Assembly: GCA_945872225.1 (NCBI GenBank)
Contig: CAMBZK010000001.1
Span: 1 to 30,520 of the forward strand
Origin: a candidate division TM6 bacterium UASB124
GTDB lineage: Bacteria; Babelota; Babeliae; Babelales; RVW-14
DNA length: 30,520 nt
Direction: 5' to 3'
The notes beneath the pieces are model-generated. The model saw only the letters and a program-made list of their open reading frames with translations. It made no database searches and was not told the DNA's origin. Positions 1,501-27,049 of the stretch are shown here, piece after piece; within the stretch, counting starts at the first letter, position 1, and each line of letters begins with the position of its first letter. The translations under genes and the position numbers were made by a program.

Positions 1501-3048
1501 ATGAAAATAGCTACAAAAAAATGGCTGATTAGTTTTGGCTTATTCCTCATGATTACTTGCTCGTTAGGGCTACCATTCAGGAAAATGAATTTTTTCTGGG
1601 ATAGCTATGGTGATTTTTTACATACCATGCAGGCAAAACAGCGTGGCTCATTTTTCAAAACTATTTTTATAGACGATGTTACCGTTGAAGAAAATTGTGC
1701 GGCTGATAATCAAGCTCATGGTGTAGACCGAAGTAAGCCGTTAACCCTTTTTGGTTTTATGTACCGCCCCCTTATTTATTTTTATAGGCTCATTCAGATC
1801 AATCTTTTTGGGGTTAACCCGTATATCTTTTTTTTGCTTCATATTCTGTTGCACGCTTGCAACGTAGTTATGCTGTTTTTACTGTTGGCTACCTTGTTGC
1901 CCCTTGCGCCATCGACCCTTTTGGCGTGCTTTTTTGCTTATAATCATTCGTGGTGGTCACTTTTGCGTTGGATAGCCGTACAATTTTATTTTATAGAAGC
2001 GCTGTGTATTTTGTTTTTTATCTGGTGTTTGTACAAAACGCTCACAACAAATCGCTTTATTTGGGGTGTTCCCGCAGCGTTCTGCTTATTTCATAATTTA
2101 TTATTAAAAGAGCAATCGCTAGCGCTCGTGCCATGGCTTGGTATGGTTTTTTTAGCTGAGCATATGCTGGTTTATAAGCATGCTTTTATTGACTGGGATT
2201 GGATAAAGCGGTGTTTTTTGTTCAGCTGGCCATCGTTGATTGCTCTTGGTGCATGGGTCTTAACACGGTGGTTAATTCTTCAAAACGCATTACAAGCTTG
2301 GCCCATTAATACGTCAACAAGTACGGTTGATATAGCTAGCGCATCAGGTGTAGGTAGCGCTATGTTGCGATGGCTTATCAACCTACCGAATATACTTGTT
2401 GATCTCGTTGGCCTTGACTGGTTTCCGCCATTCCACAAACTTGAAAAAATGTTGACATTGGTGCTTTTAGTATCTTTTTTTATCTGGCTTTTATCGTTTG
2501 TAAAACCGCCTGCCTGGCTGTTATTTTTTACTATAAGCTATCTGTTGTTTGCTTGGCCAACGTACACACTACGGCACTATCATCCACGGTATGTTTACAT
2601 GGCTATGCCGTTGTTTATTGGCTTGATCGCGTTAGCGCTTAAAATTCTACATGAGACAAATTGGCGACAGTATCGTTTTGCGTTTGCTGGGCTGACGTTA
2701 ATTAGTATGTTGAATGCAGGCTTTCTGGTTAAGCGCATGTGTGTAAGCGAACGCGAAACTGATCTTGTTGCGCAATCATTTAAAACCTTGGTCGCCGAAA
2801 ACCCAACTATATTTGAACGTACGATGTGCTTTTATGGCTTGCCACCAGAACTGTTTGATGCCTGTGTTGCACAGGCAATGACGTGGCTTGCTCCTCATTT
2901 TCAACGCCGGACTATTTATTATTTTAAATATGAAAAAACGATAGCGGCATGCAAGCTTGATGCCGCGTTTTTAGCCACCGACCCACTATTTATAACCTGG
3001 GATAGCGCAAGGCAAAAAATGGTTATTGTTGCCCAAGAAGCTGCTTAA
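1501..3048 (+). CDS. Polytopic membrane protein, probable GT-C fold (TMTC/PMT-like) glycosyltransferase
   Basis: Many hydrophobic segments. Contains MYRPL...LFGVNPYIFFLLHILLHACNVVMLFLL, LLKEQ and RYVYMA, resembling the YRPL / G-x-x-P...LH..N / KE / RY-x-Y motifs of TMTC-like GT-C enzymes. Lies inside a sugar-nucleotide cluster. Confidence 0.6.
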   Translation: MKIATKKWLISFGLFLMITCSLGLPFRKMNFFWDSYGDFLHTMQAKQRGSFFKTIFIDDVTVEENCAADNQAHGVDRSKPLTLFGFMYRPLIYFYRLIQINLFGVNPYIFFLLHILLHACNVVMLFLLLATLLPLAPSTLLACFFAYNHSWWSLLRWIAVQFYFIEALCILFFIWCLYKTLTTNRFIWGVPAAFCLFHNLLLKEQSLALVPWLGMVFLAEHMLVYKHAFIDWDWIKRCFLFSWPSLIALGAWVLTRWLILQNALQAWPINTSTSTVDIASASGVGSAMLRWLINLPNILVDLVGLDWFPPFHKLEKMLTLVLLVSFFIWLLSFVKPPAWLLFFTISYLLFAWPTYTLRHYHPRYVYMAMPLFIGLIALALKILHETNWRQYRFAFAGLTLISMLNAGFLVKRMCVSERETDLVAQSFKTLVAENPTIFERTMCFYGLPPELFDACVAQAMTWLAPHFQRRTIYYFKYEKTIAACKLDAAFLATDPLFITWDSARQKMVIVAQEAA

Positions 3049-3937
3049 TTTGTGGCAGTATAGCTTCTGTGGTTAAGCCAGCTTTGTTGCGTAGCCAGGT
3101 GCAATTGGCAATTTCATTGCCGTAGGTATGCGGTACGCCCAAGGCCTTAAAAATAACTTTGTAGTCATACGTTTCCATGAGGCAATGAGCAATTGCTTCG
3201 CCCATACCACCAATAACAAAGTGCTCTTCGATGGTAAAAATAGCGCGCGGTCGTCGCGCTGCAAACCATGCTGTTGGCAAGGGGCTAATGGTATGCAAAC
3301 TAACAAGCCCACAAGCGATGCCTTCGCTTTGGAGCTGCTGCTGAATCTGGTAACCAAGTTCAACGCCGTAGCCAGAGCCAATGATGATTACGTCATTACC
3401 AGGAATAAGTTCATGCGGTTGCCCGAGCACTGGCGGTTGTGTTCCCTCAAGAACCAGTGGTAGTGCTGACAGCCGTAGATATAAAGGCCCGTTGTGTGCA
3501 TGAATCTGTGGCATGAGGGCAACTAATTCTGCTTTGGTTGCTGGTGCAACTACGGTCATGTTTGGCAGCAAGCGGAGTGCGCCAACATCTTCGAGCGCGT
3601 AGTGCGTTGCGCCCATGCCGCCGTATTGGTAGCCACCACCAACGCCAACCAGTTTGACTGGTTGCTGCTGGTAACAGATATCAACTTTAATTTGCTCATA
3701 GCAGCGCAGCGTAACGAAGGGAACGATAGAATAAGCGTAGGGCCGCTTGCCCGTCATTGCCAACCCAGCGGCGACACCAATCATATTCTGCTCAGCAATG
3801 CCGGCGTTCAGGTAGCGGTGTTGATGCTGCTCTTTAAATTTTTCAATAACAGAAAACCCGACATCCCCAGCAATAAAATAGAGGCTGGGGTCGTGGTGAG
3901 CTGCTTCTTCTAAAAAAGCTATAAATGCTGATCTCAT
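3023..3937 (-). CDS. Transketolase-like protein, C-terminal (pyrimidine-binding + C-terminal) subunit
   Basis: NAGIAEQNMIGVAAGLA, GATHYALEDVG, GPLYLRL and TIEEH...GGMGE motifs of split transketolase beta subunits. Confidence 0.9.
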   Translation of the reverse strand: MRSAFIAFLEEAAHHDPSLYFIAGDVGFSVIEKFKEQHQHRYLNAGIAEQNMIGVAAGLAMTGKRPYAYSIVPFVTLRCYEQIKVDICYQQQPVKLVGVGGGYQYGGMGATHYALEDVGALRLLPNMTVVAPATKAELVALMPQIHAHNGPLYLRLSALPLVLEGTQPPVLGQPHELIPGNDVIIIGSGYGVELGYQIQQQLQSEGIACGLVSLHTISPLPTAWFAARRPRAIFTIEEHFVIGGMGEAIAHCLMETYDYKVIFKALGVPHTYGNEIANCTWLRNKAGLTTEAILPQIKQLLGQQ

Positions 3938-4929
3938 GGTAGCTCCAGTTTTGGCTGGCTCGGTAGCGGGGGCGTGTGAGTTATTTGGTTGTCGTAGAGA
4001 TAAAGATTGTTTTCAAACCACGCAAGAGACGCAGAGAGCCCCTGTTGCAATCTGTATTGTGGTTGCCAATTCAGCACAGTCTTTGCCAAGGAAATGTCTG
4101 CTTGCCAATGTGTTGGCTCCCATGGCCGTGAAGCTGCTTGCCCCCACTGGATGGTGAGTGGTGTTTGTGTAATCTTTTCTACGGCATTAACGACATCATC
4201 CGTGGAAGATTGTATGCCAGAGCCACCGTTAAAAACAAGCGCCGTTGTTGGTTTTTGTTTTGCGATGGTGTGGTAGAGGGCGGTCATGTCTTTGATGTAA
4301 ATATAATCGCGCACGTTGTGCGGGCTGGCTAGCGACATGGTCTTTTTTTGCAAAGCATGCGAAATGATCGTAGGGATTAAGCGTGTTGGCATCTCGTAGT
4401 CGCCGTAGACTGAAAACGGGCGCACGGTATAGATCGGTAGCTTGTGCACAAGGGCTTCTTTAAGGCAAAAATGGGTGGCGGCTATTTTTGCAACGGCATA
4501 GTCGCTTACCGGTTCAAGTGGCATAGATTCAGCCATGGGGATATTTTTTTTACCATATTCTGATGAGCTGCCCGTGTTGATAAACACATCAAACCCAACT
4601 TCTTTGCAAACGTTGAGTAGGTGGATGGTGCCATATAAATTGACAGCAAAAACAGCAGCCTGGTCTTGCTGGTCTGGCATACCGCCATAAGCTGCTAGGT
4701 GGTAAATTTCATGTGGTCGCAGTGAGAGAACTAACTGCCGTATAGCGGCGTGATTGGTTATCGAAACTTCGTGGACGGTGATTTTCTCAAGGATTGTTGC
4801 AAGCCGCCAGTAGTTGCTACCGGGCTCAGCGAGTACGTGCACGGTGGTGTCATCAAGGGTAACAAGCTCATGTACTAGATTAGCGCCAATAAAGCCGGCC
4901 CCGCCGGTTACTAAAATGGTGCGCTTCAT
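3934..4929 (-). CDS. NAD(P)-dependent epimerase/dehydratase (extended SDR; NDP-sugar epimerase or 4-ketoreductase)
   Basis: ILVTGGAGFIG, IYHLAA, TGSSSEYG, YAVAK (YxxxK) and RDYIYI motifs. Start moved to ATG 4929 (GGAGG RBS; ATGA coupling to the upstream gene). Confidence 0.88.
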   Translation of the reverse strand: MKRTILVTGGAGFIGANLVHELVTLDDTTVHVLAEPGSNYWRLATILEKITVHEVSITNHAAIRQLVLSLRPHEIYHLAAYGGMPDQQDQAAVFAVNLYGTIHLLNVCKEVGFDVFINTGSSSEYGKKNIPMAESMPLEPVSDYAVAKIAATHFCLKEALVHKLPIYTVRPFSVYGDYEMPTRLIPTIISHALQKKTMSLASPHNVRDYIYIKDMTALYHTIAKQKPTTALVFNGGSGIQSSTDDVVNAVEKITQTPLTIQWGQAASRPWEPTHWQADISLAKTVLNWQPQYRLQQGLSASLAWFENNLYLYDNQITHTPPLPSQPKLELP

Positions 4930-5765
4930 GCGTCCTCCAATAGTTTTTGTACCAATGCATATTCCTCTGGCTTGCATGATTTATAGTGCCAGGCAAGTTT
5001 GTCTTCCATGAATGGAACCCCCTTTGCTTTGGTGGTGTGTGCGATTATAACACGTGGGCGTTGAGGGGTGCGGGGTGCTCCAAAATTATTTGCAAGCGCC
5101 TGGTGGTCATGGCCATCAACATGCGTAACGGTGCAGCCAAATGCTTTAAACTTGCCATCGAGTGGTTCGGTGGCGATGTCATCGCTGCGATCAAGCCCTT
5201 GTAAATTATTGTAGTCGACAATGACGGTGAGGTTATCAAGCTTGAGGCGTACTGCCATGGTGATAGCTTCCCAAATGGATCCTTCTTGGCATTCGCCGTC
5301 GCCAACAATAACAAAAAAGCGTGATGGCAGCGCATCGTGCTGTGCGGCGAGTGCCATGCCAACGGCGATCGATAAACCGTGGCCGAGTGACCCCGTGCTT
5401 GCTTCTACGCCATGCGCAGGCATGCGCGTTGGGTGGCCGCCTAAAAACCCTTGGTGGTAATTGCTGAGCATTGTTCGTGGAATAAGATCAACGGATGCGA
5501 GCGCTGCGTAAAGCCCTGATGCCGCGTGCCCCTTGCTCAAAATAACGTAGTCACGGCTTGGGCGTTGTTTTTTTATAGCATCAAGATCAATGACGGCGTG
5601 GTAGAGCGTGACGAGAATATCGATTATGGAGTACGAACAGCCTAAGTGCGAACTGCTGACGCTGGTGAGCATGGTGGCAATAGCAAGCCGACACTGCTGT
5701 CCAATGGCAAATAAGCGGGCTGTTTGGGGAGTGGTTGGGGTAGCTGTTGCGGATGGTTGCAACAT
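4926..5765 (-). CDS. Transketolase-like protein, N-terminal ThDP-binding subunit
   Basis: SHLGCSYS, LSKGHA, GHP, STGSLGHGL, the ThDP motif GDGECQEGSIWEA...DYNNLQ, and DGHD. AAGGAG RBS at about 5773-5778. Confidence 0.92.
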   Translation of the reverse strand: MLQPSATATPTTPQTARLFAIGQQCRLAIATMLTSVSSSHLGCSYSIIDILVTLYHAVIDLDAIKKQRPSRDYVILSKGHAASGLYAALASVDLIPRTMLSNYHQGFLGGHPTRMPAHGVEASTGSLGHGLSIAVGMALAAQHDALPSRFFVIVGDGECQEGSIWEAITMAVRLKLDNLTVIVDYNNLQGLDRSDDIATEPLDGKFKAFGCTVTHVDGHDHQALANNFGAPRTPQRPRVIIAHTTKAKGVPFMEDKLAWHYKSCKPEEYALVQKLLEDA

Positions 5766-5885: not shown

Positions 5886-6326
5886 TTATAGACCTAGCTT
5901 GCCCTGCATTTCTGTTCGCCAGATATGGTTTTTACAACGGTAGCAGGGGAAAGATGTTGAGCTAGCTCGAGATAATATAAAATCACAAACCTGCTCAATT
6001 GCATCTTGTAGTAACATTGCTTCTATGGCTTGTAATTGCTTTTTAAACTGATCAAATTCACTTGATTCTCCAAGTGAGTTGTGTACAGATTGTAATGCTA
6101 GCGGTACTAAAAGATCGTCTAGGTCTGAGATGGCATTGCATTGAGCGCAAACCAATACCGTACGTATCCCTCCGCAACGCTGCCAGCACTGCGAAGTAGC
6201 ATTGCTAATGTCATGAAAGCATGCACACAAAATCTCCATGCGCTCTTCCCACAATGGTTTTTCTGCATTACAGCTATTAGATTGCAACAGCGCAAAACTT
6301 ACTATTAAAATTCCTAACTCCTTCAT
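5886..6326 (-). CDS. Secreted hypothetical protein with CxxC-x64-CxxC-x4-W signature (module 1, gene B)
   Basis: ATG 6326 preceded by GAGGGGGA. Signal-peptide-like MKELGILIVSFALLQSNSCNA. CAQC and CYRC-KNHIW motifs. Paralog of 21437..21862. Confidence 0.75.
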   Translation of the reverse strand: MKELGILIVSFALLQSNSCNAEKPLWEERMEILCACFHDISNATSQCWQRCGGIRTVLVCAQCNAISDLDDLLVPLALQSVHNSLGESSEFDQFKKQLQAIEAMLLQDAIEQVCDFILSRASSTSFPCYRCKNHIWRTEMQGKLGL

Positions 6327-6352
6327 TGCCTTCCCCCTCAATGAGATTGGTT

Positions 6353-6658
6353 TTAAAATCTAATGACATCCTCATCAGCACTATACGGTAGCGGTCTTTT
6401 TATTGGGTCTTTTTGTTCGTTCCCTGGAGCAGGATCCCAGGACGTATCTTTTTTACAGTGTGGGCATTGAAAACCAAGGTCATGCGCAGTTGCTACCATG
6501 ACGCTATCTAAAATACCTCTTGTTAGGCCAAAATAGCTCATAACAATACGCATCAAACCGTCAGCCGCCAAAGGCCCCAGCTGTTTTAAAAACCAAATGC
6601 CAAGATGTGTCAAAAATTCTGCTTGATTCATTTCTCGTGAGCATGCACGACACTTCAT
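6353..6658 (-). CDS. Small hypothetical protein with CxxC-x58-CxxC-x5-W signature, probable metal-binding (module 1, gene A)
   Basis: CRAC at residues 3-6, CPHC at 65-68, then W74. Clear paralog of 21887..22177, which supports it being a real gene. Confidence 0.8.
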   Translation of the reverse strand: MKCRACSREMNQAEFLTHLGIWFLKQLGPLAADGLMRIVMSYFGLTRGILDSVMVATAHDLGFQCPHCKKDTSWDPAPGNEQKDPIKRPLPYSADEDVIRF

Positions 6659-6712
6659 TTTGATTGTTAAGCCCTCTATTGTTAATATTTGGTGATGCTT
6701 AAATCAGGCGTG

Positions 6713-6742
6713 AATATAACAAAATTTTAAAAAAGAGAGCAA
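6713..6742 (-). promoter_or_regulatory. Putative sigma70 promoter of module 1
   Basis: Minus strand: TTGCTC (6742-6737), 18 nt, TATATT (6718-6713), with an extended -10 TG. Confidence 0.5.
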
Positions 6743-6773: not shown

Positions 6774-6805
6774 AAAAAATAGCCTGACAGTACTGCCAGG
6801 CTATT
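6774..6805 (-). terminator. Rho-independent terminator downstream of tRNA-Ser(TGA) copy 1
   Basis: Inverted repeat AATAGCCTGACAG / CTGCCAGGCTATT (one mismatch) followed by a T run on the minus strand. Confidence 0.7.
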
Positions 6806-6820
6806 AAAGATACAAAATTA

Positions 6821-6912
6821 TGGTGGAGAGAGGGAGATTCGAACTCCCGATCCCGTTTTCACGGGATGACGGTTTTCAAGACCGTTGCATTCAACCACTC
6901 TGCCATCTCTCC
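6821..6912 (-). tRNA. tRNA-Ser(TGA), copy 1
   Basis: Reverse complement GGAGAGATGGCAGAGTGG...ACGGT-CTTGAAA-ACCGT...GTTCGAATC...CTCTCCACCA. Long variable arm and encoded CCA. Confidence 0.96.
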
Positions 6913-7139
6913 GTTTTAAGTGAGAAACCCGTAATTTTTAATACTATTTGCAACACTCGGGCTTTGGGGGGGGGCATTGCATTGAGCTCATGCCAGTACG
7001 GCATAAAAATGCTTACCACTGGGGCTTTTATAAATTTATTAATAATTTTTTTTGCATTTTGTTGCATTTCAAGCAATCTTTGTTTTATTATTCAATTAGT
7101 AATATGTTTTATTTTTTATTATAACAATGGGAGAGGGTA

Positions 7140-8297
7140 ATGAGTATCAAAAATAGTAAAAAGCTGCTTAATGTAGCACTCTTTGGGGTAGCGATTTTTT
7201 CGGCTGGGCGATTATTTGCTGCATCAGGCGAACCTAGTCCTGCAAAAAAGCTTGCTGCATCAGGCGAACCTATTCCTGCAAAAAAGCTTGCTGTAGCACG
7301 TAAGATGCAGTCTGCTTACCGTGCCCACAAAGCAAAAACAGAATTTTATGCTCTGTGGGCACAAATTGCTGAGAGTGTAAACCTGCTAGAGAGTTATCTT
7401 CCTTCCGCATTTCTTACGGAGCAATTAGCATGGATCGATTCGCATTATAAAGACATAGAGAACAAACTGAATCGCGTTAAACTGTTGCGTTGGATTAACG
7501 AAACAGAGAGAGCTACGCTCATTGGGGCGTCTGAAGAAAAATTGAAGCACTTTAGACGTACTATAGATTCACGCAGAGCTTCTTCCTCAGTGCCTTCAGC
7601 AGGTGGTGCCTCAGCAGGGGCTAGTGATAGTGACTCTGAAGGCGCTGCAGGTGCTGGCAAAGCTACAGTGGTTGAAGATCCTTTATTACCTGTACAACGA
7701 CGAGTTGATAATTTTTTACGTCGCCGTGATAATGGTGAACTTAGAGGAGATCATGGAAGAGCTGAGCTACAAAACATCAGCGATGACTTAAGAGTAATAT
7801 ACGAAGGTGCTGGCTCTGCCGCTTATGATATTAAGGAGAAGATACATAATATCCTTAATAGGGGTAGCCGTAGTATATTTTCATATCACAGTACAGCCCT
7901 TTTTGGTAAAGAAGATAAATGTTTCAAATGGCTTTATGATCTTGATTCAGTAGCGCTGCCAGTAGCGCTGCCAGAGGTAGTTGCTCCTCTTACGCGTGCT
8001 GATATTAATTCGCTCTTGCGGCAACTAGAGGATTACATTTTGAAGATGAAGCCAGGCAATAGAGATCCTTTCGCCATGGCTTTGAAGACTCTGTCAGATA
8101 CTGAGCAAAATGTGAGGTTAGAAGCAGAAGAGAATCAGGCTATTAAAATAGGGACTGCCATTAGAACGCTAGAAGCAGAAGGAGCAATCAGGGAGGATCT
8201 AGCGAGAGAGCTCGCGAAGAGACTCAGCGACGCGAATGAATCTCTATATGTAATGAGGAGAGCGTTGGATGCGCAGCTGCGGAGATCGCGTAAATAA
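7140..8297 (+). CDS. Secreted effector-like hypothetical protein (signal peptide, 12-aa tandem repeat, IQ-like motif, helical/coiled-coil body)
   Basis: GGGAGAGG RBS. MSIKNSKKLLNVALFGVAIFSAGRLFA signal. AASGEP(S/I)PAKKL twice, then VARKMQSAYRAHKAKTEF. Ser/Ala/Gly low-complexity linker. Confidence 0.8.
   Translation: MSIKNSKKLLNVALFGVAIFSAGRLFAASGEPSPAKKLAASGEPIPAKKLAVARKMQSAYRAHKAKTEFYALWAQIAESVNLLESYLPSAFLTEQLAWIDSHYKDIENKLNRVKLLRWINETERATLIGASEEKLKHFRRTIDSRRASSSVPSAGGASAGASDSDSEGAAGAGKATVVEDPLLPVQRRVDNFLRRRDNGELRGDHGRAELQNISDDLRVIYEGAGSAAYDIKEKIHNILNRGSRSIFSYHSTALFGKEDKCFKWLYDLDSVALPVALPEVVAPLTRADINSLLRQLEDYILKMKPGNRDPFAMALKTLSDTEQNVRLEAEENQAIKIGTAIRTLEAEGAIREDLARELAKRLSDANESLYVMRRALDAQLRRSRK
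7218..7289 (+). repeat. 36-bp tandem repeat x2 (one mismatch) encoding AASGEP(S/I)PAKKL
   Basis: gctgcatcaggcgaaccta(g/t)tcctgcaaaaaagctt at 7218-7253 and 7254-7289. Confidence 0.95.
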
Positions 8298-8460: not shown

Positions 8461-8552
8461 TGGTGGAGAGAGGGAGATTCGAACTCCCGATCCCGTTTTC
8501 ACGGGATGACGGTTTTCAAGACCGTTGCATTCAACCACTCTGCCATCTCTCC
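8461..8552 (-). tRNA. tRNA-Ser(TGA), copy 2
   Basis: Identical to 6821-6912; last gene of the Arg-Ser-Ser tRNA run. Confidence 0.96.
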
Positions 8553-8605
8553 GTAAGAATTTTTTATAAAAGACTGGCCGTGCCAGCTGAAGCCTTAGCG
8601 AAAAC

Positions 8606-21436: not shown

Positions 21437-21862
21437 TTAGTTGTTGTTTCTGATTGCTACTTGCCAGAGGCTATTATTGCACTCTGGGCATTTATAAGAA
21501 ACCGCTTCTATGGTAGATGTTATAAAAGCTTCAATTTCTTTGGGAGATCCTTGTAGTGTTGCAAATGACTCGTCTAATTTTTGTTTGGCGATTTGATAGC
21601 AATGATCATCATCAACATTCTTCAGGGCATAGCCTGCAAGCATCCCGATAATGCCTACCATCCCACACGAGCTAGAACACCCAGAACATTTAAAAATGGT
21701 TTCTTCTTTGCCTGCTGGAGCATATTGCTTTACCGCTGGATCGAGTTTGATTATGGTAATAACAATATCTGCAACACGTGTTGCCATTGTAAGAGGGCTG
21801 CCGACACAATCCTGTGCCTGAAGCAGCAAAAAACATACCAATACTTGCCCTAAGATTTTCAT
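21437..21862 (-). CDS. Secreted hypothetical protein with CxxC-x62-CxxC-x4-W signature (module 2, gene B)
   Basis: GGAGGGGGAG RBS, signal-like MKILGQVLVCFLLLQAQDCVG, and CSGC and CPEC-NNSLW motifs. Confidence 0.78.
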   Translation of the reverse strand: MKILGQVLVCFLLLQAQDCVGSPLTMATRVADIVITIIKLDPAVKQYAPAGKEETIFKCSGCSSSCGMVGIIGMLAGYALKNVDDDHCYQIAKQKLDESFATLQGSPKEIEAFITSTIEAVSYKCPECNNSLWQVAIRNNN

Positions 21863-21886
21863 TCTCTCCCCCTCCTGGCTACTTTT

Positions 21887-22177
21887 CTAAAAAGTGATTA
21901 CATCATTATTCTTAGTTTCAACAGGCATCTCTTCTGGTGCAGCATCCCAACACGATACTGACTTGCACTCTTCGCATTGAATATTAAAAGCATTGGCAAA
22001 TGTAGCCATTCCTTCGTCCCAGCCACTTCGCGTTAAACTTTGAAGGTAACAGGTAACTGCTTTTATGCCACATTCCATAGCCAAGGGCCCTAGATTTTGA
22101 ACGAAATACGCTGCCGCCATTGCTAAAAAACCTGCATGAGTCATCATTCTTTTGCACTTGCGGCAGATCATTTTCAT
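21887..22177 (-). CDS. Small hypothetical protein with CxxC-x59-CxxC-x5-W signature (module 2, gene A)
   Basis: CRKC, LGPLA, LTR, QCEECK, WDAAP and terminal DVITF; paralog of 6353..6658. Confidence 0.8.
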   Translation of the reverse strand: MKMICRKCKRMMTHAGFLAMAAAYFVQNLGPLAMECGIKAVTCYLQSLTRSGWDEGMATFANAFNIQCEECKSVSCWDAAPEEMPVETKNNDVITF

Positions 22178-25557: not shown

Positions 25558-26412
25558 TTAGCCGACGTTTTCGCTTGTTGTCTCGCGTTCTAAAATAGTT
25601 GCCACGGCTAGCCATGGTAACGGGTCGCCATCATCTTCAGTGGCCCATTGCGCGGCTAGCACTGCTTGCACAAAGCTCCAAGCGGCAACACGTTCCCGTG
25701 GTGCATGCATAAGCTGGGCAAAAGCATCGAGCCGCTGGGCTATAATGTCTACGGGATTGTCTTGTTGCAGTAGTGGTGTGATGGGGTTACGAATAAAAGC
25801 GCCAACTTCATAAAGCGGCTCGCCCATAACACCGTGAGGATCTATCGCTACCCAATTATCACCTGAGGCCAAAATATTATTGTGATGAAGGTCACCGTGG
25901 AGCAGTACCACAGGAGCCATCGTTGCAAATAACTCTTTGGTAATCCGTTGTGCTGTTGCAACTAACGTTGGTGGCAGAAGGGGTGACGGTGCGTGAAGCA
26001 ACCGATCAAACCATTCAGCCAATGTTGGGAGACTTTGATCCGTTGGTACTGGTGCGCCATGCAGCAGATGCATTACTTTGGCGGCATGCGTGATCGTTTG
26101 AGCATCATGCGCTGGAAAAAGCGTTTCAAGTGATTGCCCAGGGAGCAAGCGCTCTAAGAGAATGGCACCAAGCGCAGGTGCGGTGTCTAGTAAATTTACG
26201 CAACCATGTCCTTGAAACGTTTTCAGCGCAATAATTTCATGGTGCAGTGTGCGTTCATCGGTACTAAGCTTTACCATGACGGGAGAATTGGTTTCAGTCA
26301 TGATGGCGGTAAAAACACGTCGTTGTTGAAATGAATAGTATAACGAAATGTGGTCAAGGCCCCAGTGCTGAGCAATAAGATCAATGGTATCTTGAGTGGC
26401 GTTTGTTTCCAT
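25558..26412 (-). CDS. Aminoglycoside/hydroxyurea phosphotransferase family kinase (APH(6)/StrB-like)
   Basis: VMVKL, ILLERLLPG, LLHGDLHHNNIL and WVAIDPHGVMGEPLYE motifs. Start at ATG 26412, just after the upstream stop. Confidence 0.82.
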   Translation of the reverse strand: METNATQDTIDLIAQHWGLDHISLYYSFQQRRVFTAIMTETNSPVMVKLSTDERTLHHEIIALKTFQGHGCVNLLDTAPALGAILLERLLPGQSLETLFPAHDAQTITHAAKVMHLLHGAPVPTDQSLPTLAEWFDRLLHAPSPLLPPTLVATAQRITKELFATMAPVVLLHGDLHHNNILASGDNWVAIDPHGVMGEPLYEVGAFIRNPITPLLQQDNPVDIIAQRLDAFAQLMHAPRERVAAWSFVQAVLAAQWATEDDGDPLPWLAVATILERETTSENVG

Positions 26413-26416
26413 CGTT

Positions 26417-27049
26417 TTATGCGCCAGTCTCTGGTTGGTCATCACTCGTAAAAATATCTACGAAAGCATTTTTTGCTGAAGTAAGTGATGTTGTGGCATT
26501 AATAAGCCGTGGTCTTCCCCATGTTTTTGTGTTTGAATCATAAGAAAACAGCGCCAAGATGCCAATGCCGATGACGGCAACGGCCACTCCGCTGTAAATT
26601 ATGAGCATACGTTCAGGTTTGGCATACTCTTCTTCAACCTCTGCTGCCAGCTCAGGAGCTTCATGTTCTAATATGCTTCTTACGGTGTTAAGTCGCTCTT
26701 CGATTACTCTGCTGACTTCTGTTGCTAAATTTTTATCTTCAAAATGTTCTCTATGGACAGCATCTTGATCATGCAACAATTTTTTATAAATCATGGCTAG
26801 TTTTTTGAGTGAGAGTTCGGTTTCCATCGGTAATATAACTTTTGATTCAACGGCATCACTGTTTTTATCATAACCATCAAGGGAGAGCTCTGCTTCCGTG
26901 GGTAGCGTAATTTTTGTTGAGCTAGCGTTGTGACCAGAAGGGTTTTCTGCAGTTGTTGCTTGTGGTTGTTTTTCAGTTGAGGGATTTACGGCGTATACAG
27001 TGGTATAACTTGCGCTTAAGAGTATGATACTAAGGAATATATACATCAT
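26417..27049 (-). CDS. Hypothetical exported protein with C-terminal membrane anchor
   Basis: Signal peptide, low-complexity region, an internal duplicated motif (KITLPTEAELSL / KVILPMETELSL) and a TM segment (MLIIYSGVAVAVIGIGILALF). Confidence 0.7.
   Translation of the reverse strand: MMYIFLSIILLSASYTTVYAVNPSTEKQPQATTAENPSGHNASSTKITLPTEAELSLDGYDKNSDAVESKVILPMETELSLKKLAMIYKKLLHDQDAVHREHFEDKNLATEVSRVIEERLNTVRSILEHEAPELAAEVEEEYAKPERMLIIYSGVAVAVIGIGILALFSYDSNTKTWGRPRLINATTSLTSAKNAFVDIFTSDDQPETGA

Follow-up and report, generated by a model that had tools for sequence, protein, structure and literature searches.

The Dependentiae (TM6) are widespread, almost uncultured obligate parasites of protists, and their genomes are dominated by exported proteins without known function. 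Chlamydial OmcA and OmcB, encoded by adjacent genes of an obligate intracellular bacterium, are cysteine-containing envelope proteins, one small and one larger, and the class IIa bacteriocin/immunity layout consists of a secreted protein together with a small protein at the cytoplasmic face of the membrane. The LITAF/SIMPLE-like zinc ribbon (PF10601; LITAF, CDIP1) belongs to eukaryotic monotopic membrane proteins; its two CxxC knuckles, which together make a single zinc site, are separated by a hydrophobic insert of ~22 residues that is embedded in the membrane, both ends of the domain being cytoplasmic (PMC5095921). Here we describe a two-gene cassette that occurs twice in a 30,520-nt stretch of DNA from the candidate division TM6 bacterium UASB124 (the whole stretch is referred to as the window; it is contig 1 of a metagenome-assembled genome of 0.97 Mb, 84% complete). 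The cassette, gene A followed by gene B, is a genuine and conserved Babeliales module of paired paralogues that had not been described before. Both copies lie on the minus strand, and their parts are as follows.

6353-6658, minus strand: gene A1, an open reading frame (ORF) of 101 amino acids (aa) without signal peptide, matching the A-family profile with E = 5e-33
6327-6352, minus strand: A1-B1 spacer of 26 nt, with a Shine-Dalgarno-like GAGGGGGA at 6332-6339, as read from the sequence
5886-6326, minus strand: gene B1, an ORF of 146 aa from its ATG, matching the B-family profile with E = 1e-38
21887-22177, minus strand: gene A2, 96 aa, a paralogue of A1 (35% identity)
21863-21886, minus strand: A2-B2 spacer of 24 nt, with GAGGGGGA at 21867-21874
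21437-21862, minus strand: gene B2, 141 aa, paralogous to B1 at 23% identity; it has a signal peptide and shares the Cys4-W core

An initial annotation of the window had described a bicistronic unit present twice on one strand in unrelated neighbourhoods, its genes separated by 24-26 nt that contain GAGGGGGA, and this description is borne out. The motif stands 4-5 nt ahead of the B ATG in both spacers, and a G-rich equivalent is present in a third cassette, which we found on contig 47 of the same genome (G000:C47, locus L002) and which encodes A3 of ~100 aa and B3 of 166 aa. The outer limits originally given for the window cassettes, 6742 and 22248, enclose the real units together with ~80 nt of upstream non-coding DNA. 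The reported similarity between A1 and A2 is likewise real, the figure of ~40% over the core becoming 35% (36/102; E = 3e-19) by BLASTP. B1 and B2 are 23% identical (E = 6e-10), and the proposed pattern MK.LG...V.F.LLQ...C is indeed common to their N-termini. The resemblance within both gene families is far above chance. An alternative TTG start of B1 at 6341 is unlikely.

The two genes of a cassette also resemble each other. In A1, a CxxC knuckle (C3, C6) is followed by three predicted helices, a CPHC knuckle (C65, C68), W74 and a disordered acidic tail ending in VIRF. B1 begins with a Sec-type signal peptide (MKELGILIVSFALLQS...) and continues with an N-terminal helix, CAQC (C60, C63), three helices, CYRC (C128, C131) and W136. 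When the profiles of the two families were compared, hhalign returned a probability of 94% (E = 1.3e-7) over 82 columns across both cysteine knuckles, and the hidden Markov model (HMM) of each family also matches the other family. These sequence comparisons indicate that A and B are paralogous and share one four-cysteine domain, whose signature is C-x2-C-x3-(M/L)-x-L-x-E-F ... M-x3-(A/S)-N-x5-C-x2-C-x4-6-W. The four cysteines are invariant in all members with a complete N-terminus, and the knuckles lie a median of 59 (A) or 65 (B) residues apart. The AlphaFold2 (AF2) model of B1 (predicted local distance difference test, pLDDT, 82.9; predicted TM-score, pTM, 0.71) consists of the signal helix, a helix at residues 25-50, a strand leading into the first knuckle, three helices at residues 69-123, the second knuckle and a final strand. 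That of A1 (pLDDT 64.9) consists of a knuckle, helices at 12-27, 29-42 and 47-61, the second knuckle and the disordered tail. In composition, B is A with a signal peptide and one helix added. Two CxxC-type knuckles, with short strands predicted by AF2 at both, place the domain in the zinc ribbon class, and the models suggest a split, zinc-ribbon-like Cys4 clamp in which the two knuckles and the Trp close around a three-helix insert.

The pairing of A and B extends well beyond the window. The A profile matched 114 clusters at E ≤1e-3 among 1.84 billion cluster representatives, nearly all of them 80-120 aa long, and all named genomes with the A family are metagenome-assembled genomes of 'Candidatus Babeliales' or 'candidate division TM6'. 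The DNA occurs in freshwater and lake metagenomes. In an evenly drawn sample of 201 Babeliales genomes, A was found in 22, B in 23 and both in 18, compared with ~2.5 genomes expected to have both, and the four genomes that seemed to possess A only in fact carry a diverged B directly behind it. The window's own family accounts for many of these matches (A in 12 and B in 17 of 32 genomes), the others being scattered over five further families. The number of matches per genome ranges from 1 to 6, one of the six in genome G002 being the arm of an artefactual palindrome. That genome contains an apparent inverted double cassette (L030, G002:C10:13400-19400), which was rejected: it is a perfect palindrome of 2998 nt with 0 nt between the arms and therefore a fold-back assembly artefact, in which the cassette and its neighbours are falsely doubled.

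A scan of 31 loci with the HMMs of both families found 31 A/B pairs in 28 loci, with A ahead of B in 30 pairs and B ahead of A in one. The spacers measure ~10-40 nt, or the stop and start codons overlap. Solo genes in the scanned loci were four B and no A. The pairing is nearly obligate. The initial annotation would have been refuted if the genes mostly stood apart in other genomes; they do not. The distance matrices of A and B are correlated (Mantel r 0.65, a value reached by 0 of 2000 permutations), and shared genome ancestry contributes to this correlation.

Natural fusions join the two domains in a single protein. In P0100, P0129 and the truncated P0142, A is followed by a linker, which is basic in P0100, then by a hydrophobic segment bearing a good cleavage site, and finally by B; a domain search confirmed the A and B matches. 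P0100 and P0129 are 21% identical along their entire fused length, which indicates that the fusion is old or recurrent and not a sequencing error; a search with P0100 returned no match other than P0100 itself. The layout of the fusions fixes the gene order and implies that A is cytoplasmic and that B lies beyond one membrane-inserted segment. The sole reversed cassette (L014, 6161-7060; B of 173-183 aa, then A of 106 aa) shares its contig with a normal A-then-B cassette, and P0122, a reversed fusion of B with half of A, is of the same type. A B-B fusion occurs at another locus (L053, G056:C17, 989-1579, minus strand), where an A gene is followed by a 196-aa ORF with two tandem B domains, one partial and one full.

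The two paralogues differ in their predicted location. In 26 B proteins, a basic n-region precedes an uncharged run with a median length of 15 residues, after which come LQS-like sites, and by a rule of thumb the B proteins qualify for Sec export; the length of the run is that of a signal peptide and not that of a membrane anchor. In Dependentiae, Sec is known to carry a very large part of the proteome (PMC6561590). A has no export signal. The second helix of A is strongly hydrophobic in most members, A3 of contig 47 among them, with Kyte-Doolittle (KD) values of 1.9-2.3 in a 19-residue window, and the tail is lysine-rich in about half of them, so that many members of the A family are likely to be associated with the membrane. 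Profiles of DsbA, DsbB, VKOR and Thioredoxin_4, all of which match control genomes, found nothing in the window's own genome, and those of DsbA, DsbB and VKOR found nothing in three relatives that are 94-95% complete, one of them a single contig. Since no oxidative folding system was found, the Cys4 site of the exported B is likelier to hold a metal, as its cytoplasmic paralogue would, than to form disulfides.

Comparisons with described families agree with the initial annotation, which had recognised no family for either gene. Pfam, NCBIfam, PADLOC and PHROGs assigned no family to the six proteins of the three cassettes in this genome, and family libraries run on every member of the A and B alignments gave only sub-threshold matches to a single knuckle. 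PDB sequence profiles did not match. Fold searches with the B model reached a best E of 3.2 in PDB and 0.27 in AFDB clusters with Foldseek, a best Z of 6.3 with VIA-align among 48,161 chains (to designed helical bundles, within the helical background), and TM ≤0.48 in the ESM Atlas, where the look-alikes are unnamed clusters or noise. The A model had no match in AFDB or PDB. The possibility, raised with the first description, that homologues would lead to a characterised family was not realised in these searches, as neither a curated family nor a fold match emerged, Foldseek included.

In architecture, A comes closest to the LITAF domain: most A members likewise place a hydrophobic helix (KD 1.9-2.3) between two knuckles. 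The differences are considerable: the insert of the A/B family comprises ~59 residues in three helices, A1, A2 and other clades are not hydrophobic, B is an exported soluble version, and LITAF has no known paired-paralogue system. PF10601 matched neither the window proteins nor the other cassette of the same genome at its cut-off of 23.8 bits, and it gave E of 0.047 or worse in 5 of 27 A and 3 of 14 B members, the best being 0.047-0.07. Membership of the LITAF family therefore fails by sequence, and we retain the comparison as an architectural analogy only.

Only one structural neighbour of the B core (residues ~47-146) recurs, GlyRS_ins_1 (PF28494), insertion domain 1 of the dimeric glycyl-tRNA synthetase, with TM 0.39-0.48 over 71-96 residues in three libraries. 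Both have zinc-ribbon knuckles, a helical insert, and a CxxC followed by x4 and W, whereas B is a free-standing exported protein and GlyRS_ins_1 an insertion in an enzyme. We rejected a closer relation: Foldseek E is 0.27 or higher, TM is below 0.5, and hhalign with the genome's own GlyRS gave a probability of 11% over 19 columns. These columns comprise only the second knuckle and the Trp, a likeness expected of any zinc ribbon with a helical insert. Generic zinc ribbons (Pfam Zn_ribbon; NCBIfam CxxC_Se_CxxC and ECs_2282) have in common with A and B the CxxC/CPxC knuckles on beta-hairpins, but none matches at its curated cut-off or over the helical insert, and the EF...M..(A/S)N...C..C....W signature and the pairing are specific to the present family. 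OmcA and OmcB differ in that no sequence similarity to them was found, that A and B have four conserved cysteines only, and that A has no export signal; disulfide cross-linking is unlikely because no Dsb machinery was detected.

The copies in this genome are not of recent origin. Its three cassettes have no flanking DNA in common, and their coding DNA can scarcely be aligned. In sister strains, one contig (L041) contains orthologues of the tRNA-Ser gene, A1 and B1 in the same arrangement, the alignment stopping beyond B1, and another (L042) contains a FolC-like gene, A2, B2 and a GalU-like gene in the same places as the window. The break in synteny between L041 and the window falls precisely at the end of B1. 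The low identity, the unrelated flanks and the synteny in sister strains show that the window cassettes are old paralogues and not fresh copies. A recent duplication or a mobile element was rejected in view of the unshared flanks, the lack of bounding repeats and the sister-strain synteny. The term 'amplifying' in the initial annotation is not sustained, given the ancient divergence of the copies (35% and 23% identity), whereas its description of a self-contained, undescribed and conserved two-gene unit is supported. Ratios of nonsynonymous to synonymous substitution rates (dN/dS) against the sister-strain orthologues are 0.23 for A1 (L041), 0.15 for B1, 0.17 for A2 (L042) and 0.47 for B2, and this range indicates that both genes are real and constrained. 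Over 28 pairs, the mean p-distance is 0.78 for B compared to 0.66 for A, so by this measure B diverges faster. One cassette locus, next to an APH-like kinase, is common to three genera.

The neighbours of the cassettes are varied and include tRNA-Ser, HEPN/nucleotidyltransferase pairs, Fic, Rpn-like PDDEXK, GNAT, APH-like and ankyrin-repeat genes. These contexts are flexible-genome settings and provide no direct functional clue. In one group of close relatives (L006, L007 and L008, 1700-8300) the A-B pair is located between sufB and sufD of a sufC-sufB-[A-B]-sufD-x-x-sufS operon. A GIY-YIG endonuclease gene lies just upstream of the pair of this lineage in L008 and L009, which suggests an insertion site; in L006, sufB is seemingly split over several ORFs. 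The APH-like kinases of the three genera are orthologous (64-71% identity) and flank a cassette or a solo B (L030, 997-1899; L031, 3910-4800; L036, 3506-4378). Unrelated APH-family genes adjoin cassette 3 (contig C47, L002, 107-934) and lie 3.4 kb from cassette 2 (window 25558-26445), and GNAT acetyltransferases often adjoin cassettes. A gene for a 426-aa ankyrin-repeat protein is located upstream of a solo B in L037 (G008:C1, 3249-4529), with an ORF-free gap of ~640 nt.

In the window, cassette 1 has a tRNA-Ser(tga) gene on one side and a split transketolase/epimerase operon on the other, and cassette 2 is accompanied by a GalU-like gene and a Mur-ligase/FolC-like gene. Two features next to cassette 1 belong to its context:

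6821-6912, minus strand: tRNA-Ser(tga), immediately preceding cassette 1 on this strand and outside the module (ARAGORN, Rfam)
6778-6805: hairpin after tRNA-Ser(tga), upstream of cassette 1 (repeat search)

The tRNA gene is one of two full-length, 100%-identical tRNA-Ser(tga) genes (6821-6914 and 8461-8554, both minus strand) at a distance of 1640 nt, and a hairpin comes after each. Between them lies a single ORF of 385 aa (7140-8297, plus strand) with a 36-nt tandem repeat, for which Pfam gave no hit, and no recombinase is present. Directly downstream of cassette 1 (3023-5765, minus strand), transketolase is split into N- and C-terminal halves around a gene for an NAD-dependent epimerase/dehydratase. 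Rfam matched tRNAs only, and promoter and terminator scans performed no better than on shuffled sequences.

These results lead us to propose, as a tentative preference whose probability falls a little short of even, that A and B are a lineage-specific, co-inherited Babeliales pair acting together, a cytoplasmic and often membrane-hugging A with a Sec-exported B that is exposed and fast-evolving. A (~100 aa) would stay in the cytoplasm, probably on the inner face of the cell membrane, a position suggested by the hydrophobic second helix of most members and the basic tail of about half. B (~150 aa) would be exported via Sec to the periplasm or beyond. The two genes would be translationally coupled, either through a strong ribosome-binding site in the short spacer or through overlap of the stop and start codons. 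Such coupling, the joint divergence of the two families and the fusions in some relatives suggest that A and B may function as a single unit, with one part on each side of the inner membrane. The exported, fast-evolving B may be the active part, at the envelope or host interface, and A its cytoplasmic partner for maturation, targeting or coupling. A more specific version, which we consider unlikely, is an envelope-spanning module, in which mirror-image paralogous helical domains, each clamped by a Zn(Cys)4 site, sit on both faces of the inner membrane. They would either link something outside the parasite, for example host contact or a ligand or metal in the periplasm, to the cytoplasm or act as a gate for B on its way to the host.

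Several points weigh against the preferred reading. Metal binding, the topology, a physical interaction between A and B and the role at the host interface are all properties that we infer. The signal peptide of B was judged by a rule of thumb (basic n-region, 7-15 uncharged residues, small residues at -3/-1), and the model of A is of moderate confidence only. A1 and A2 are the least hydrophobic A variants, with KD of 1.2-1.3 and acidic tails ending in V-I-x-F, and the insert of the g24 clade looks likewise soluble; membrane association is therefore not a defining trait of A. The four solo B genes indicate that B does not strictly need A, and the fusions are known from protein representatives only, on contigs of ~1 kb.

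It is possible, if quite unlikely, that the pair is a split transmembrane sensor or regulator in which B senses in the periplasm and A relays, much as zinc-binding anti-sigma factors and ToxR-like one-component systems do. The fusions have a suitable order of parts, with a cytoplasmic zinc ribbon, a basic linker, a hydrophobic segment and a periplasmic domain, and the basic tails found in many A proteins might serve to bind lipid or nucleic acid. However, no sigma factor or DNA-binding partner adjoins the cassette in the loci with neighbours examined, the short hydrophobic segment of B (median 15 residues) and its good cleavage sites suggest that B is probably released, and up to five or six copies in a 1.3-Mb genome are many for a regulator.

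A toxin-immunity or bacteriocin-immunity pair, for example a secreted bacteriocin B with A as the immunity protein at the membrane face, is a doubtful explanation and unsupported by the present data. A small, multi-copy, fast-diverging two-gene unit near HEPN/nucleotidyltransferase, Fic, GIY-YIG and Rpn-like genes would fit it, and the A/B layout resembles that of class IIa bacteriocins and their immunity proteins. Nevertheless, the profiles of known toxins, antitoxins and defence systems found no counterpart (PADLOC, 0 families for the six proteins; Pfam and NCBIfam, none). Type II toxin-antitoxin systems have two cytoplasmic partners, whereas all B proteins examined carry an N-terminal segment resembling a signal peptide. 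Paralogy between the two partners is unlike known toxin-immunity pairs. Solo genes of the putative toxin B occur and orphan A genes do not, the reverse of the usual pattern of orphan immunity genes. Natural fusions of a toxin with its antidote would make little sense, and in one lineage the pair is kept inside the essential suf operon. The initial annotation had suggested toxin/immunity, effector/chaperone or a two-component peptide system; nothing specific speaks for the first two, in view of the export signal of B, the solo genes and the paralogy, and the third is at odds with A and B being folded domain proteins of 100-150 aa.

A role in metal or iron-sulfur handling, with Cys4 sites that carry Zn or Fe as in rubredoxin or move metal or electrons between the cytoplasm and the periplasm, is possible but improbable. 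Four invariant cysteines in two CxxC/CPxC knuckles are consistent with it, as is the pair between sufB and sufD. Against this, the suf location is confined to one close-knit lineage and has a GIY-YIG gene adjacent, no metal genes were seen at the other loci examined, fast divergence and a multi-copy state are atypical of housekeeping metal carriers, and Cys4 ribbons are most often structural.

It is very improbable that A and B are functionally unrelated genes merely travelling together, or a selfish mobile cassette without a cellular role: the variable neighbourhoods, the tRNA gene adjoining cassette 1 and the patchy distribution (22 of 201 genomes) would be compatible with this, but there is no recombinase, terminal repeat or shared flank, both genes are under purifying selection, orthologous positions are kept across strains and, with the same APH-like kinase, at one locus across three genera, and the pairing has outlasted divergence to ~20% identity.

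The paralogy of A and B, their near-obligate pairing, their distribution and the natural fusions are new. The A-B pair of the Babeliales defines a small, clean and testable family of ~100 sequence clusters, and its design is unusual in that neighbouring paralogous genes would put one domain on both sides of a membrane, with the fusions fixing the order and the likely topology. If A and B do not interact, they would be one more conserved hypothetical pair. If they do, they may provide a compact model of the lineage-specific envelope or host-interface modules of reduced intracellular bacteria, and a bacterial parallel to eukaryotic LITAF, whose zinc ribbon is split by a membrane insert.

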